From Dehalococcoidia bacterium (GTDB taxonomy: Bacteria; Chloroflexota; Dehalococcoidia; UBA6926), in contig OZ242203.1 of the NCBI GenBank assembly GCA_965206275.1, positions 1,678,485 through 1,742,484 of the forward strand: 64,000 nucleotides of DNA, given 5' to 3'. The notes beneath the pieces are model-generated. The model saw only the letters and a list, made by a program, of their open reading frames with translations. It did not search any database and was not told the DNA's origin. Numbering within the stretch: position 1 is the stretch's first letter; each line of letters begins with the position of its first letter. Both the position numbers and the translations under genes were made by a program. Below, piece after piece: positions 3,408 to 43,350 of the stretch.

Positions 3408-3495
3408 GCCGGGGTGGTGGAACGGTAGACGCGCTGGCCTCTCAAGTCAGTGTCCATCGTTGGACGTGCGGGTTCGAATCCCGCCCCCGGCACCA
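3408..3495 (+). tRNA. class II (long variable arm, Leu-type body, A73, encoded CCA) tRNA; the hand fold gives anticodon CUC
   Basis: Acceptor GCCGGGG/CCCCGGC, D stem GTG/CGC, anticodon stem CTGGC/GTCAG with loop CTCTCAA, variable arm GTCCA-TCGT-TGGAC, T arm GCGGG-TTCGAAT-CCCGC. Confidence 0.85.
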
Positions 3496-3573: not shown

Positions 3574-3841
3574 CTTTCTCGGAGAAGTTAGTCACTCTAC
3601 AATGCATTGACACTGCGTTGTGACCTCCTTCCCGTCAAGACCATTGTACCTCGATTCTCTGGATCAAAAAAGACCTGGATTTGACCGACTTGCTCTCTGC
3701 CCTCTAGTCTGAAAGAGCCTACCAGTCCTAGTTCCCCGCATTGGGTTACTCAGGGATGGACTACACATGTCCCCTGCGGCCCAATGCGTGGTTCGACTGG
3801 TAGGCAAACAGTCCGATCCCAAGACCGCAGGGGGCACACTT

Positions 3842-4393
3842 ATGCGACTCGTCTTTGTTCTTGCCTTGCTATTGATTCTGGCCGCAGGATGCGACGCAGA
3901 AGCCGCTACACCCACTCCACGCGCCACACGGGTTGTCATGCACACGCCGACTCCTACGGCGACATTCATTCCGCGTCCAACAAGCACACCTGCTCCCACA
4001 GCAACGGCCACGGCAATAGCCCCACCAACCGTGAGGCCAACCGCACCCCCGATTGGCGCAGTCACAGTAACGCCGTTCCCGACACAGCCACCACGCAACA
4101 CGGCGCAGACCTCGCGCGTGCCCGTGAGCGTACAGCGCGGGTGTGATGCGGCGTCTGAATTACTTGCTCTCATGGAGAATCTTGACGAGGCAGGGATAGA
4201 GCGTAATCTGACCAGGCTTGCGCGAGCCATCATAAGCACAGGGGAATATGGATTAGACGCGCAGGGTCGGCTTGTGCTCTCGGACATGGCGTCTGCGGAA
4301 CAATACGTCAACGTGTACGACGCCTTCTGGGTGATTGAGTCCGGCCTCGAAACCTATATCCACCTGTGTGAGTTGCAGGGGTACACGCCTTAG
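3842..4393 (+). CDS. lipoprotein with Thr/Pro-rich linker (element cargo)
   Basis: Signal peptide plus lipobox MRLVFVLALLLILAAGC, then a TP-rich linker and a C-terminal domain of unknown function. I chose the internal ATG at 3842 over the track start 3767. Confidence 0.6.
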   Translation: MRLVFVLALLLILAAGCDAEAATPTPRATRVVMHTPTPTATFIPRPTSTPAPTATATAIAPPTVRPTAPPIGAVTVTPFPTQPPRNTAQTSRVPVSVQRGCDAASELLALMENLDEAGIERNLTRLARAIISTGEYGLDAQGRLVLSDMASAEQYVNVYDAFWVIESGLETYIHLCELQGYTP

Positions 4394-5358
4394 CCGTCGA
4401 TTAGATCGGCGTAGGGCAGGCGCTTGCCGTCTATGCCGCGTGCCATCGCTTCCATCTGCTCAAGGGTGTCCAGTGAGCGGTCGTTGTGCCGCCCCGCGAA
4501 CTCCGTGACGTACCTGTTCAGGTGCTTGGGACTCATCTTGTGGTAGATACCGTGATACCCGCGCTTTAGCATCGCCCAGTGGCTCTCAATGCCGTTTGTG
4601 TGGGCCATGCCGTCCACGAATTGACGGACTGAGTGCTTCACGACGCCGTGCCTGCGATTCAGGAACGGCAGGGCGCTATAGGATGCGTGCTCGTCCGTGT
4701 AGACCTGTACGCCCTCTTCCGTGCGCTCGTGGACGAACATCATAAGCGTTGCCGCACTCGTGGAATGCACGACCCGTGCGCTGACCTTGTTGGTCTCGCG
4801 GTCCTTGACACCCGCCACCACAGCCTTGCCGACCGTGCCACGTCCAGCGCGTAGCTTCTTGTTCCCGTGCTTGTTGTCTTCCTTGCCACCGATGTAGGTC
4901 TCATCCACTTCGACGGGGCCTGCGAATCGCTCAGTTGCCGTATCCCACGCTTGGCGGATCCGATGCGCCATGTACCATGCGGACTTCTGCGTGATGCCTA
5001 GATCGCGGTGCAGCTTCATGCTGGACACGCCCTTGAGGTTCGTGGAGAACAGGTAGAAGGCGAGCGCCCACTTGCCAAGCGGCAGGCGGGAATCGTGCAT
5101 GATGGTGCCGGTCTTGACGGTGAAGTCCTTCTTGCAGGCGTTGCAGTGGTACTGTGTGGTCTTGCGATTGGCATAAGGCTTGCGCGTGTGAACGTTGTCA
5201 CTGTCACAGTCCACGCAACGGACGCCGTCAGGCCAGCGCAACGACACGAACCATTCCTCGGCCTGTGTGTCGTCACCGAACCTCTTGACGGCATCCACAA
5301 GGGTTATGCCCTTGCGGTATGACTTGCCTGGTGCCTTCGCCATTCTTTCCGTGTTCAC
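4390..5358 (-). CDS. IS1595-family (ISXO2-like DDE) transposase
   Basis: N-terminal transposase zinc ribbon (CVDC...CNAC), VEVDETYIGG, and the HTNGIESHWAMLKR...Y.H.S.KHL tail typical of this family. Confidence 0.9.
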   Translation of the reverse strand: MNTERMAKAPGKSYRKGITLVDAVKRFGDDTQAEEWFVSLRWPDGVRCVDCDSDNVHTRKPYANRKTTQYHCNACKKDFTVKTGTIMHDSRLPLGKWALAFYLFSTNLKGVSSMKLHRDLGITQKSAWYMAHRIRQAWDTATERFAGPVEVDETYIGGKEDNKHGNKKLRAGRGTVGKAVVAGVKDRETNKVSARVVHSTSAATLMMFVHERTEEGVQVYTDEHASYSALPFLNRRHGVVKHSVRQFVDGMAHTNGIESHWAMLKRGYHGIYHKMSPKHLNRYVTEFAGRHNDRSLDTLEQMEAMARGIDGKRLPYADLIDG

Positions 5359-5444: not shown

Positions 5445-5609
5445 ATGGCTCAAACCGCACCATGGCATTCAGTGAATTCAACCGTGTATCACGAATGCAC
5501 CAATTGCACCACGGGGAACAACATTGAGCAGGAGAACTGGCGAGCAGGAACTGGCCAAAGGCGACGATGCCTGGAGTGTGTAAGCCTTATTGCTTCCGGT
5601 GGTTGCTGA
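5445..5609 (+). CDS. 54-aa zinc-ribbon protein (element cargo)
   Basis: Strong RBS AAGGAGG 7 nt before ATG 5445. Motifs HECTNC...CLEC. The track start 5373 is rejected. Confidence 0.5.
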   Translation: MAQTAPWHSVNSTVYHECTNCTTGNNIEQENWRAGTGQRRRCLECVSLIASGGC

Positions 5610-5913
5610 GAAGAGGAACCTGTTCCCAGAACACGATTTCGGAGACAGGCCCTTCTGGTTGACCGTGAATAACTGACCACACACGGCGAATCTCTTTGAC
5701 AGGCAACCCGTTATAGATCGCCACCCCAAGCGCCCGCCATTCTTCGCCATGATCGCCCTCGAAACGGACGGCTGGCTCTGGGTAGCTATGGCCTTTACCG
5801 CCCTGACAAGATTCGTATGTGTGGATTCCCTCACGACGCAGGATTAATACTGCTCTCTCAATACCAGAATCGAGCGGTGGGTCAAAGTCCTCTCGTAGGG
5901 CATACTCATTCAT
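5587..5913 (-). CDS. 108-aa hypothetical protein (element cargo)
   Basis: Only long ORF in this stretch. It starts 21 nt inside the right TIR. Third-position GC looks lower by eye than in flanking host genes. Confidence 0.5.
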   Translation of the reverse strand: MNEYALREDFDPPLDSGIERAVLILRREGIHTYESCQGGKGHSYPEPAVRFEGDHGEEWRALGVAIYNGLPVKEIRRVWSVIHGQPEGPVSEIVFWEQVPLLSNHRKQ

Positions 5914-8246: not shown

Positions 8247-9077
8247 TCAAACCTCAAGCGGCGTATCGTCCCGGTTCGCCCATTCCCGCATGGACCCGTC
8301 ATAGTTCCGCGTGCTTTCGTAGCCAACCAGCCGCATGACGAATACTCCGTGCGCCGCACGGATGCCACCCTGTCAATACGTGTAGACGTTCTTGTCCGGC
8401 GTGATGCCGTGTTCAGAAAGCAGTTGTCGTATCTCGGATGCCGACTTGAACCGATGCGTTTCGCGGTCCATCAGGTTAAGCCACTCAAGGTGAACGGCCC
8501 CGGGAATATGCCCCGCTCGCGCGTTGGCACGGTTGTTGGAGCCGTCCCATTCGCCATCTGTGCGAACGTCCCAAACGACGGAGTCCGCCAGCGTGCACGC
8601 CTCTTTCAACTCGTCGACTTTCACGAGCATTGAGTCGTCAAGGTTCGGGGTGAATGTCACGCCTTCCGCCCGCGCCGGACGCTGGAAACTGATTACGTGG
8701 CCGCCGTTAACCCAGCCGCGCCAGCCGCCATTCAGCACCCGCGCGTTCCGGTGTCCATATGTGTTGAGAACCCACCACAAGCGGGCCGCCGTCACACTCT
8801 GCGCATTGTCGTAAGAGATTACTGCTGTGTCATCGCCGATCCCCAATCCCTCACACATCTCCTTAAATTGTGAGGACGTCATCATCAGCGTGCGATTCGT
8901 GTCGGGGTCTTTCACGAAGTTGTCCGGAATGAGGACCGCGCCCGGGATATGACCCCTGTTGTAGCCCGCGTCAACGTCGCAGTCCACAACAACAACATTG
9001 TCATCATCCAAATGCTCCGCCAGCCAATCCGCCTCCACCAGGTACTCCGGGTGGGCATAGTCCTCGTTAGTCATCAT
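8247..9077 (-). CDS. two-domain rhodanese / thiosulfate-3-mercaptopyruvate sulfurtransferase with in-frame TGA (8373-8375) at the catalytic Cys position; candidate selenoprotein
   Basis: The track ORF stops at ...DKNVYTY-TGA. The same frame continues QGGIRAAHGVFVMRLVGYESTRNYDGSMREWANRDDTPLEV-TGA, completing the Y-C-x-x-G-x-R active-site loop and the NYDGSW-EW tail. Start ATG 9077 has RBS GGAGGGGAGGG. Confidence 0.75.
8347..8361 (-). promoter_or_regulatory. candidate bacterial SECIS hairpin for the rhodanese TGA
   Basis: On the coding strand: UGA, then 11 nt, then CCGUGC-GGC-GCACGG. Confidence 0.45.
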
Positions 9078-9108
9078 TCCCTCCCCTCCCTCTATGTAGA
9101 ATAGCCAT

Positions 9109-9711
9109 ATGAGCATTCTCGACAAGGCGCAGCGCATGTTCGGTGGTTCCGCTGCTGTGGACAAGGATCGCGTTCCACCCGGTCAGGCCGTTACGCAGAA
9201 GTTTCCCGTCCTCTCTTACGGACAGACTCCGCAGATTGACCTCGCTACGTGGACGTTTGAGGTCATCGGCCACGTCGACAATCCGGTTCGCCTCACGTGG
9301 GAGCAATTCCTTACTCGAGCGAACGATGCCGTGACCGCGGACTTTCACTGCGTTACCGGATGGTCACGACTCGACAATGAGTGGGAAGGCGTCTTTGTCC
9401 GTGATTTATTCGACGAGGCCCGCATCCGCCCAACCGCCACACATGTCATGGCCCACTGCTATGGCGGCTACACAACGAACATCCCACTATCGGCACTCTT
9501 GAATCCCGATGTCCTGATTGCTCATCGCCACGATGGCGCGCCGTTGGAACCGGAACACGGCGGCCCAGCCCGTCTCATCGTGCCTGACCGCTACGCGTAC
9601 AAGAGCGCCAAGTGGATTAAGGCGCTGGAGCTCATGCCGGAGAACAAGCGTGGATTCTGGGAGATCCACGGCTACAACTCCAACGCAGACCCGTGGAAAG
9701 TGGAGCGCTAA
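9109..9711 (+). CDS. molybdopterin-dependent oxidoreductase (sulfite-oxidase fold, YedY/YuiH-like)
   Basis: FHCVTGWS motif (Mo-ligand Cys context), GGPARLIVP and YAYKSAKWI. Confidence 0.8.
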   Translation: MSILDKAQRMFGGSAAVDKDRVPPGQAVTQKFPVLSYGQTPQIDLATWTFEVIGHVDNPVRLTWEQFLTRANDAVTADFHCVTGWSRLDNEWEGVFVRDLFDEARIRPTATHVMAHCYGGYTTNIPLSALLNPDVLIAHRHDGAPLEPEHGGPARLIVPDRYAYKSAKWIKALELMPENKRGFWEIHGYNSNADPWKVER

Positions 9712-29459: not shown

Positions 29460-32452
<2,993 letters not shown>

Positions 32453-32601: not shown

Positions 32602-32676
<75 letters not shown>

Positions 32677-41301: not shown

Positions 41302-42213
41302 ATGCAAGCACCCCCCTTGTTAGAAGCGACCAATCTCACGAAGCGCTACGGTAGAGTCCTCGCCCTCGATAACGTCACATTTACCGTCGGTGATGGCATT
41401 ACGGGTCTCCTGGGGCCAAACGGCGCGGGGAAAAGCACAGCAATCAAGCTCTTCCTCGGCCTGCTTCAACCCACACAGGGCGCTGCCGAAGTGATGGGAG
41501 CCCAGCCCTACCACGATGTCAACGCGCGTTCCCTCATCGGCTACATGCCCGAGCATGACTGTCTCCCAACGTCTGTCAACGCCTCGGAGTTCCTGACCCA
41601 CATGGCGCAGGTCAGCGGCCTGCCGCCCGCGCAGGCACGCACTCGCGCAGCGGACACCATGCGCCACGTCGGTCTAGATGAAGCCCGCTACCGCAGCATC
41701 GGTGAATACTCCACAGGCATGAAGCAGCGCGTAAAACTTGCGCAGGCCATCGTCCATGATCCCCGCCTCGTATTGCTTGACGAGCCAACTGCCGGACTCG
41801 ACCCGGGCGGGCGCGAGGAGATGCTTGATCTGGTCAAGCGGACCGGACGCGACTTCGGCATCAGCATCGTCTTCTCATCCCACCTCATGGGTGAAGTGGA
41901 GCGGACGTGCGACAACATCATCGTGTTGGAGGCGGGCCGCATCACGCATGAGGGCAGCGTTTCCGGATTCACGGAAAACACTGATGTCCTGTCGGTTGAC
42001 ATCGACTCTCGCCATGATGAGTTCATTGCCGCCCTGACCTCCCGTAGTATTGAGGCTCAGCGAGATGGCAACTCCGTGCTGGTCGGGCATGAGAGCGGCG
42101 AGCATCTTGCGGCCATCCAGGATGCGCTCATCGAGGCTGAAGCCCCCCTCCGCCGCATGGCCTACCGCCGCCGCATGCTGACCGAAATCTTCCGCGACGA
42201 ACCAACGGACTGA
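41302..42213 (+). CDS. ABC transporter ATP-binding protein
   Basis: Walker A GPNGAGKST, signature YSTGMKQR, Walker B LVLLDEP. Confidence 0.9.
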   Translation: MQAPPLLEATNLTKRYGRVLALDNVTFTVGDGITGLLGPNGAGKSTAIKLFLGLLQPTQGAAEVMGAQPYHDVNARSLIGYMPEHDCLPTSVNASEFLTHMAQVSGLPPAQARTRAADTMRHVGLDEARYRSIGEYSTGMKQRVKLAQAIVHDPRLVLLDEPTAGLDPGGREEMLDLVKRTGRDFGISIVFSSHLMGEVERTCDNIIVLEAGRITHEGSVSGFTENTDVLSVDIDSRHDEFIAALTSRSIEAQRDGNSVLVGHESGEHLAAIQDALIEAEAPLRRMAYRRRMLTEIFRDEPTD

Positions 42214-42219
42214 CCGCGT

Positions 42220-43350
42220 ATGGAATCCCGTCCTTCAGGCCAACTCTTTGACATCGGCTACCAGCGCTATGACGGCCCCCGACAGGGTCGCAACCGCGCG
42301 CGCCTTGCCCTGTTCGTCAGCGGCGTCCGCCAATCTCTTGGGCTTGGCCGAGGTGGGCGATCCAAGATCCTGCCCGTGCTCATGGTGTTGGTATCTGTCG
42401 TTCCGGCAGCAGTCATCCTCGTCATCGCCGCCATAAGCGGCGGGATCATAGATCGCCCCGTTGAACTGGGCGACTATTTCCCCATCAACACCTTGCTTCT
42501 GATGATTGTCGCGGCCATCCTCGCGCCGGGCCTCATCGTTCCTGACCGAACGGAGAATGTCCTGAGCCTCTACCTCGTCCGTCCGATGGGTGTATTTGAC
42601 TATCTCGCGGGGCGTTGGCTTGCGTTCTTTCTCGTGACGACGGTCATCATCCTCAGCGGCCCACTGCTGTTGCTCGCCGGATACATTCTCTTGTCAGAGA
42701 ACGCGGCTCAGGAGTTTCGCGATAACTGGCTCGATTTTCCCAGAGTCCTTGTTGCCGCTGCCGCTATGGGCGCATTCATCACATCCATACCGATGGCGGT
42801 TGCCGCCTTTACTCCCCGCCGCGTGTACGCCGCGGCAGTTGTTATCGGCGGCGTCCTGGTTCTGAGCACGGCCGTGGGAGTCTTGACCGAGCCCATTGAT
42901 TTCGATGGATCGTCATTTGAAACAATCGAAGAACGGCCCATCACGGATGAAGAGCTTGCCGCCGCTGAGCAATTTCTGGACGCGACACGCTCCATGCCGG
43001 ACAACGTGGAAGTCATGATCTCCGTGGAGCTCGAATCAGGAGAGACACGACAGTACCTGATGTCACGGACTGACGTTGAAGAGGCTCTCGACGGCGGAAA
43101 TGTCCGGGTATTTGAGTTGGATGAGCCGGAATCGCTCCTGGATCCTGAAACCAGTAAGTGGGTTGTGTTTACCGATCCCACGGGAGCGACAGTATTCGTC
43201 ACCGATCTGCTCTTTGAGGATGTACAGTCGAACAACTACCGCCGATTGGTCGATGAACATCCGGATTATTACCCCATCGCCGCCTATCTCGTGTGGGTAT
43301 TGGTACCCCTCGGGCTCATGTGGTGGCGCTATCGGAGGTATGCGGCATGA
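42220..43350 (+). CDS. ABC-2-type permease with large extracytoplasmic insert
   Basis: Multiple TM helices. It sits between two ABC ATPase genes. Confidence 0.65.
   Translation: MESRPSGQLFDIGYQRYDGPRQGRNRARLALFVSGVRQSLGLGRGGRSKILPVLMVLVSVVPAAVILVIAAISGGIIDRPVELGDYFPINTLLLMIVAAILAPGLIVPDRTENVLSLYLVRPMGVFDYLAGRWLAFFLVTTVIILSGPLLLLAGYILLSENAAQEFRDNWLDFPRVLVAAAAMGAFITSIPMAVAAFTPRRVYAAAVVIGGVLVLSTAVGVLTEPIDFDGSSFETIEERPITDEELAAAEQFLDATRSMPDNVEVMISVELESGETRQYLMSRTDVEEALDGGNVRVFELDEPESLLDPETSKWVVFTDPTGATVFVTDLLFEDVQSNNYRRLVDEHPDYYPIAAYLVWVLVPLGLMWWRYRRYAA

Follow-up and report, generated by a model that had tools for sequence, protein, structure and literature searches.

A two-domain rhodanese gene of SAR202-type Dehalococcoidia very probably encodes selenocysteine at its catalytic position

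A selenoprotein family called 'rhodanese-related sulfurtransferase' (COG2897), with a predicted selenocysteine insertion sequence (SECIS), was described from three Sargasso Sea sequences (Zhang, Fomenko & Gladyshev 2005, PMC1088965) and was found again in 2008, with eight sequences, in the Global Ocean Sampling (GOS) data (PMC2398784). The family also appears in reviews of 2022 and 2026, of which the former places the rhodanese with selenocysteine (Sec) among the predicted selenoproteins of unclear function and the latter lists it as 'form 4', with a UxxG motif. Published examples are AACY01016424, MQG53192.1 and MCY3690685.1. Here we describe a gene of this kind in a 64-kb stretch of DNA (contig OZ242203.1; the whole stretch is called the window) from a marine or sponge-associated Chloroflexota lineage, the SAR202-type Dehalococcoidia. 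On the minus strand of the window, a two-domain rhodanese gene carries TGA in place of the codon for the catalytic cysteine, and we conclude that it is very probably a genuine selenoprotein gene in which Sec serves as the catalytic nucleophile. The gene belongs to the family predicted 20 years ago, and a switch between two classes of SECIS hairpin is a modest new detail. An earlier note on this DNA had proposed a Sec enzyme at the locus and had mentioned that Sec-rhodaneses were predicted from marine metagenomes, as the two surveys indeed report.

The called open reading frame (ORF) on the minus strand has the C-terminal end ...GITPDKNVYTY and stops at TGA 8375-8373. The same frame runs on for 41 more codons, and both coordinates and continuation were as the earlier note had given them. 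Including Sec codon 235, the gene has 276 codons (275 when counted from the second ATG, at 9074) plus the terminator. The lengths of homologs indicated that translation starts at ATG 9077 or 9074 and not at TTG 9164 further upstream. The features of the gene are as follows.

9077..8247, minus strand: predicted full-length selenoprotein gene for a two-domain rhodanese-type sulfurtransferase (ORF and translation, Pfam, PDB alignment).
9078..9090, minus strand: purine-rich, Shine-Dalgarno-like stretch GGGAGGGGAGGGA, read from the sequence directly upstream of ATG 9077.
8706..9032, minus strand: N-terminal rhodanese domain, residues ~16-124 (best Pfam stretch; aligns to the N-domain of 1uar).
8268..8630, minus strand: C-terminal catalytic rhodanese domain, residues ~150-270 (second Pfam stretch; PDB alignments reach residues 274-275).
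8355..8375, minus strand: active-site loop U-Q-G-G-I-R-A, which forms a rhodanese-type cradle of six residues (U-X4-R) and contains the UxxG motif (translation).
8373..8375, minus strand: in-frame UGA, probably read as Sec (residue 235), where Cys enzymes have the catalytic Cys that forms the persulfide.
8250..8372, minus strand: 41-codon C-terminal extension QGGIRAAHGVFVMRLVGYESTRNYDGSMREWANRDDTPLEV, translated only upon UGA recoding, which completes the active-site loop and carries the conserved NYDGSM.EW tail.
8346..8362, minus strand: putative SECIS core UCCGUGC-GGC-GCACGGA, with a 7-bp stem and a 3-nt GGC apical loop that starts 17 nt past the UGA.
8247..8249, minus strand: true terminator TGA (frame continuation; orthologs stop at the homologous position).

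When Cys was placed at the stop, two stretches of the protein matched the Pfam Rhodanese domain (PF00581, E=1.8e-36), the tandem arrangement of COG2897/SseA-type enzymes. The same sequence aligned from end to end with the solved two-domain rhodaneses 1uar (E=2e-45), 3hzu, 1e0c and 1urh, which assigns it to the rhodanese fold. We take the N-terminal domain to be the non-catalytic one, as is established for thiosulfate sulfurtransferases (TST) and 3-mercaptopyruvate sulfurtransferases (MST). The C-terminal domain is split by the UGA, and the called ORF is left without the active-site loop and the last 41 residues. In the alignments the stop fell on the catalytic Cys of 1uar (VVYCRIAERSS) and of 3hzu, and U-QGGIR lay opposite C-RIAER in 1uar and C-RIGER in 3hzu, with the nucleophile opening a six-residue loop of the C-terminal domain. 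The proposal in the earlier note that the stop sits exactly at the persulfide-forming Cys was borne out by these two structures and by the Cys homologs described below. Sulfurtransferase activity, with thiosulfate or 3-mercaptopyruvate as donor, is predicted by analogy; the protein scored 134.3 bits against the 3-MST equivalog NF008557 of NCBIfam, where the cut-off is 250, and is only related to that group. The stretch at 9078..9090 may act as a Shine-Dalgarno sequence.

To compare the catalytic codon among relatives, one genome per species (GTDB) was scanned with the truncated protein as the query. This gave 80 loci, all from Dehalococcoidia, SAR202 or Chloroflexota metagenome-assembled genomes and several of them sponge-derived, which together with the window made up a set of 81 sequences. 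The closest locus (L001) was 96% identical. Selection by similarity to the truncated query biases the set towards the Sec clade, and it is unbiased as to the stop codon used or the conservation downstream. The catalytic codon was TGA in 81/81 sequences, and TAA, TAG, TGC and TGT were found in 0/81. The true terminators, located 40-45 codons past the UGA, were mixed (~40 TAG, 21 TAA and 20 TGA). TGA was also present in five tandem paralogs and in the distant metagenome contigs L083-L086, where two representatives were 45% and 38% identical to the window protein and where the TGA, QGGIRAAH and the hairpin were all kept. An in-frame UGA with an intact, conserved frame on both sides, the pattern that marks a selenoprotein gene, was found in these sequences.

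The immediate surroundings of the codon were equally constant. The context TAT-TGA-C was invariant in all 81 sequences (8372-8378 in the window and the homologous sites elsewhere), and the base 3' of the UGA was always C. The Tyr codon before the UGA was TAT in every case, though TAC accounts for 78% of the other Tyr codons of these genes (518 TAC vs 149 TAT); the distant L084 had TAC-TGA-C. UGA-C is the weakest context for termination by release factor 2, and would favour recoding. A reassigned genetic code was considered and excluded, because TGA otherwise serves as a normal terminator here and ends ~40% of the long ORFs in the window. As judged from the alignments, the position of the stop on the catalytic residue, together with its comparative conservation, is far beyond chance and shows that the UGA is recoded.

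The sequence past the UGA also behaved as coding sequence. Conservation began with the very next codon, and the periodicity was in the frame of the upstream gene. Past the SECIS, the entropy at codon positions 1/2/3 was 0.43/0.27/1.17, compared to 0.55/0.38/1.21 in the upstream gene, and synonymous codon differences numbered 5898 vs 4111 nonsynonymous ones. The extension was 41 codons long in 77 of the 81 sequences, had a GC content at third codon positions of 0.73 and was overlapped by no other gene. The substitution pattern shows that purifying selection acts on the extension and that it is translated in this frame. Decay of the frame in close relatives had been named in the earlier note as an observation that would speak against a Sec enzyme; none was seen in close or distant relatives, which had coding periodicity and purifying selection instead.

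The inner hairpin CCGUGC-GGC-GCACGG follows the UGA at a distance of exactly 11 nt and occupies 8361-8347, where the earlier note had placed it. The published criteria for a bacterial SECIS (bSECIS) are an apical loop of 3-9 nt, an upper stem of 4-16 bp, a G in the first two loop positions, a distance of 16-37 nt between the UGA and the loop, and a minimum free energy <= -7.5 kcal/mol. The hairpin in the window passed with a stem of 7 bp, the loop GGC, a spacing of 17 nt and -9.9 kcal/mol. A second type of hairpin, here called class B, passed with 8 bp, the loop GUG, a spacing of 25 nt and -8.1 kcal/mol, and the hairpin of the distant L084 passed with -7.7 kcal/mol. A search with Rfam gave no match to a SECIS family in the window.

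The hairpin was then examined for constraint at synonymous sites. In columns with a conserved residue, the normalised codon entropy was 0.34 for codons +1 to +12 after the UGA vs 0.70 elsewhere (Mann-Whitney p=1.7e-5). Class A (n=62, including the window) encodes IRAAHG with the invariant codons ATC-CGT-GCG-GCG-CAC and with variable codons at +9, +11 and +12; its hairpin, CCGUGC-GGC-GCACGG, has the loop 17 nt past the UGA, and the synonymous sites of the hairpin-arm codons were invariant in 62/62 sequences. Class B (n=17) encodes IRAANS, and here the invariant codons are GCG-AAC-AGT-NTG-TTC-GTC-ATG, with the Ser codon AGT in 17/17, and the codons for Ile (three codons) and Arg (five codons) are variable. 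The class B hairpin, GGCGAACA-GUN-UGUUCGUC, is shifted 6 nt further downstream and has its loop 25 nt after the UGA. Loci L065 and L074 were intermediates between the two classes. In the five tandem paralogs, where the loop reads UQAGLRAAHG, the hairpin was kept and Leu was encoded by CUC. Across the alignment the synonymous constraint moves with the hairpin, which selection on the amino acids cannot explain and which shows constraint on the RNA. RNAalifold found only the 6-bp upper stem to be conserved, with one compensatory change, from G-C to U-A in L065. A second one, from C-G to A-U in the closing pair, was present in L084-L086 (ACGUGC-GGC-GCACGU). The spacing had been described in the earlier note as that of a bacterial SECIS; the hairpin fits the published model, and the constraint at synonymous sites supports a function.

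When 5.8 billion proteins were searched, 2481 matched at E<=1e-20, and the best 120 were examined. They were 64-99% identical with 84% query coverage, all ended in ...Y[T/A/S/V]Y, and all were 232-237 aa long except one of 267 aa. From this shared end and the lengths it follows that every called homolog was cut at the same codon. The public records that we saw, such as the 'sulfurtransferase' HIN06229.1 of NCBI (234 aa) and a 'thiosulfate/3-mercaptopyruvate sulfurtransferase' of JGI, end at the Sec codon and are 232-237 aa long. The expectation in the earlier note that automated annotation would truncate the gene was therefore correct, both for the best 120 proteins and for HIN06229.1. No selenoprotein model of NCBIfam covers the COG2897 Sec-rhodanese family, and the best match there was the 3-MST equivalog; the missing model is probably the reason for the 234-aa entries at NCBI.

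The N-terminal 234 aa, as encoded, also served as the query against 1.84 billion representatives of clusters at 50% identity. Among the top 150 representatives, at least 25 stop just before the catalytic position. The nearest full-length representatives had Cys in the same loop, as YCQGGIRAA (P0163, P0192) or YCQAGIRAA (P0160, P0167, P0168). When aligned over its full length, P0163 was 38% identical (E=2e-66) and placed TYCQGGIRAA opposite TY-U-QGGIRAA. Thus, the pairing of Sec with Cys in homologous positions, which the earlier note had asked to see in an alignment with Cys homologs, was found with 1uar, 3hzu, P0163, many other full-length Cys representatives and a Cys paralog in locus L072. 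In L072, two Sec copies and this Cys paralog (YCRSGIRAS) lie within the same 20 kb. Tandem second copies of the Sec-rhodanese were present in L048, L067, L072 (minus strand), L075 and L077, at ~9.7 kb in each locus; they have the loop UQAGLRAAHG and a longer acidic C-terminus, and each carries the TGA and the same hairpin.

A comparison with described systems placed the gene in the Sargasso/GOS family. Like the published members, it is a marine, two-domain COG2897-type protein in which Sec is predicted to replace the catalytic Cys as part of a UxxG motif, here UQGG, as in the published description of 'form 4', and it has a SECIS-like hairpin with a small, G-containing apical loop directly downstream of the UGA. 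Nothing fundamental differs; the originals were three and eight metagenome reads with no organism assigned, and what is added here is a SAR202/Dehalococcoidia host, the TGA in 80 species-level genomes, the tandem Sec paralogs and the two SECIS hairpins. The fold and the domain order are shared with the Cys-containing rhodaneses and MSTs (1UAR of T. thermophilus, 3HZU, SseA of M. tuberculosis, 1E0C, RhdA of A. vinelandii, 1URH, SseA of E. coli, and 1RHD, the bovine enzyme), as are the six-residue cradle after the nucleophile and the conserved C-terminal tail, and the closest full-length relatives share CQGGIRAA. In contrast to these enzymes, the nucleophile is encoded by UGA (Sec) and not by a Cys codon. 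The loop signatures of TST and MST enzymes are RKGVT and GSGVT, respectively, and QGGIR differs from both. Sec within a rhodanese domain is also a feature of rhodanese_LYCAU (NF041203, CxU), of the TsoB rhodanese/DsbD fusion (NF045694) and of the single-domain COG0607 forms, but the architecture and the Sec motif differ from those of the present protein, which scored 35.4 bits against NF041203 (cut-off 115) and 19.6 bits against NF045694 (cut-off 805). The hairpin resembles the SECIS of E. coli fdhF in being a stem-loop in the coding region immediately 3' of the UGA, with a small apical loop that contains G and a spacing of 11 nt. In the minimal E. coli SECIS the distance between the UGA and the upper stem is likewise 11 nt. 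There was no sequence similarity to the fdhF element, the loop is 3 nt (GGC) and no bulged U was seen.

Several results weigh against the interpretation of the gene as a selenoprotein gene. In the reviews the family figures as predicted only. The 69-nt region folded no better than shuffles (z = -0.45), a bSECIS-passing hairpin followed 6.4% of the 2168 TGA triplets in the window (60% GC), and a hairpin at least as stable followed 2.1% of them. The hairpin alone is not statistically unusual and is weak evidence. Because many TGA triplets in the window pass the hairpin test, the case rests on the comparative evidence. The z-score of the fold was set aside as uninformative in GC-rich coding sequence, and the base-rate and synonymous-constraint tests were used instead. 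The stem was nearly invariant, so the support from covariation is thin, with two events, and the lower SECIS stem was not conserved (RNAalifold, alignment). The 64-kb window and the 80 related loci (1.6 Mb) were searched by tblastn with E. coli SelA, SelB and SelD and by ARAGORN, and the window also by Rfam, and no selA, selB, selD or tRNA-Sec was found; for the window, the earlier note had reported the absence of selA/B/C/D. A screen of the whole window for genes split by TGA gave no other selenoprotein gene, and, false positives aside, a screen for conserved in-frame TGA codons in the loci of the relatives returned the rhodanese and its paralogs and nothing else.

The machinery for Sec insertion is documented for relatives. 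BSepDB admits only species with at least 2 of SelA, SelB and SelD. Dehalococcoidia UBA1141, with 49 selenoproteins, and isolate 10f4566d, with 46, are among the ten bacteria that have the most selenoproteins there, and they correspond to our loci L043 and L018, respectively. In addition, SelA, SelB and SelD were reported in 5/5 SAR202 bins from sponges (bin16, 22, 87, 90 and 127; Slaby et al. 2017, Table S4). The present genome presumably carries selA/B/C/D as well.

Three other explanations of the stop codon were weighed. The computed data show recoding and an RNA signal and not the chemical identity of the residue, and, to judge from the Cys homologs, an enzyme with Cys at position 235 would be active. 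The UGA might then be recoded to a residue other than Sec, either by hairpin-stimulated near-cognate read-through (Cys or Trp) or by SelB/SECIS-like insertion of Cys on a tRNA(Sec)-like tRNA, a rare route, and the search of the window and loci had found no Sec machinery. However, the size of the hairpin loop, its G and the spacing all match the SelB-type bSECIS, and SelA/B/D and very large selenoproteomes are documented for the lineage. A one-base change to UGC or UGU would give Cys, yet this was seen in none of the 81 and 9 further sequences. We consider a residue other than Sec very unlikely, and infer that position 235 is Sec.

The stop might instead mark a pseudogene, a private nonsense mutation or an error of sequencing or assembly that turned TGC or TGT into TGA in a dead gene. 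TGA is one base away from both codons and gene callers end the ORF there, and the earlier note had itself raised the possibility of such an error. It would have to recur at the same codon in 81/81 species-level genomes, in five tandem paralogs and in metagenome relatives of 38-45% identity. Past the TGA the frame is unbroken and evolves under purifying selection, and a shared systematic artefact is implausible across short-read and long-read data from different projects; this explanation is exceedingly improbable. Genuine termination would yield a 234-residue protein without the catalytic loop, perhaps a rhodanese-like protein with a regulatory or binding role, and the conservation further downstream would be that of a separate small ORF or of an RNA element. 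Internal GTG and ATG codons do occur downstream (e.g. ...GVFVM...), and bacterial UGA recoding is known to be partial, with some truncated product likely. But termination here would deprive the protein of its active-site loop and of the final portion of the fold, and conservation starts right after the UGA, where QGGIRAA is homologous to the Cys enzymes and the periodicity stays in the frame of the upstream gene. In addition, the stop is always TGA, unlike the ordinary terminators, and termination at this codon as the normal outcome is very unlikely.

If the gene is a selenoprotein gene, as we favour, the UGA at 8375-8373 would not be taken as a stop during translation. The hairpin at 8362-8346 in the mRNA, whose inner stem begins 11 nt downstream, would act as a bacterial SECIS and recruit SelB-GTP-Sec-tRNA(Sec), Sec would be inserted, and the ribosome would read another 41 codons before it meets the true stop at 8249-8247. 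On the model of Cys rhodaneses, a donor, for instance thiosulfate or a persulfide, would pass a sulfane sulfur (or selenium) atom to the Sec, and the resulting enzyme-Se-S(-) (or Se-Se(-)) intermediate would hand the atom to a thiophilic acceptor, as does the Cys persulfide of rhodanese. Both this chemistry and the physiological substrate are our proposals from the relationship to these enzymes. A more speculative idea, which we regard as unlikely, is that the Sec-rhodanese is more than a sulfurtransferase of higher speed and serves as a dedicated selenium/sulfane carrier (enzyme-Se-Se(-) or Se-S(-)) that feeds selenium to SelD, and, related to this, that the two SECIS hairpins co-evolved with distinct SelB variants. 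If true, the carrier role would link the Sec-rhodanese to the large selenoproteomes of SAR202 (46-49 per genome).

The neighbourhood of the gene was compared among the loci. Divergent from the Sec-rhodanese, at 9109-9711 on the plus strand, lies a gene for a 200-aa molybdopterin-binding protein of the sulfite oxidase family (PF00174, E=6e-41), and the two start codons are 31 nt apart. The pair was kept in L001-L013 and not in the other 67 loci. A molybdoenzyme neighbour would fit a role in thiosulfate or sulfite metabolism, but little weight is given to the linkage because it is confined to the 13 closest genomes. A conserved neighbourhood was rejected as a functional clue, as the synteny of dut, the molybdoenzyme gene and the other neighbours is limited to L001-L013. 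The end of this synteny is marked by an IS1595-family transposase at 4390-5358 on the minus strand (PF12762, E=3.5e-38, plus a zinc ribbon); the flanking ORFs at 3664-4311 and 5478-5834 had no match in Pfam.

The false positives of the screen for in-frame TGA codons were adjacent genes in the same frame and conserved intergenic sequence. They included same-frame pairs of the form ...RREF-TGA-xM.YTYPC... in L014, L016, L021, L025, L031, L061, L063 and L064 (minus strand, ~13-15.5 kb), which were rejected as Sec candidates and which, by eye only, we presume to be of the HicA/HicB toxin-antitoxin type. In the window, the ORFs 41302-42213 and 42220-43350 (plus strand) share a frame and are split by a TGA and two codons; they were read as two adjacent genes rather than as a selenoprotein gene, because the second begins at a start codon of its own and encodes 376 aa.

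The transposase adjoins an odd tRNA gene, which is a separate observation. At 3408-3495 on the plus strand lies an 88-nt class II tRNA, whose variable arm is long, whose acceptor/T stems are 7/5 and whose discriminator is A73. Its anticodon loop is CU-CUC-AA, i.e. it has the Glu anticodon CUC, on which ARAGORN and Rfam agree, and its D-arm is nearly identical to that of a normal tRNA-Leu(GAG) (L054:20504-20590). Five diverged relatives of 85 nt (L087:1775-1859, L088:632-716 on the minus strand, L089:1389-1473, L090:1375-1459 on the minus strand and L091:315-399) were found in a metagenome scan and had the same loop and compensatory changes in the acceptor stem, and the CUC class II tRNA was therefore taken to be a maintained family and not a decayed copy. 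Since GAG stands for Glu in the alignment of the rhodaneses, there was no sign of codon reassignment. The tRNA could be charged with Leu and mistranslate GAG, or it could be a non-translational tRNA; a quick literature search gave no description of such a bacterial class II CUC tRNA. Elsewhere in the window, a 23S rRNA gene (29460-32452, plus strand) is followed by tRNA-Met (32602-32676, plus strand), and several short ORFs listed within 29.7-32.3 kb are spurious. No 16S or 5S rRNA matched at the Rfam gathering score in the 64-kb window, and the rRNA genes therefore appear to be unlinked.

The practical relevance of the gene lies in annotation: metabolic reconstructions of SAR202 and of sponge symbionts carry a catalytically dead rhodanese where a selenoenzyme very probably exists. 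The alternative hairpins, with synonymous constraint that switches between them, are a natural experiment on the evolution of a SECIS inside a coding region, and the COG2897 Sec-rhodanese family, of which there are only predicted members, offers a clean system in which to compare Sec with Cys in persulfide transfer. The lineage in question, SAR202/Dehalococcoidia, is implicated in marine sulfur cycling. Across 80 Dehalococcoidia genomes of different species, and in no fewer than 25 clusters of 50% identity, Sec appears to be fixed, which suggests a strong and persistent advantage of selenium over sulfur in sulfur-transfer chemistry.

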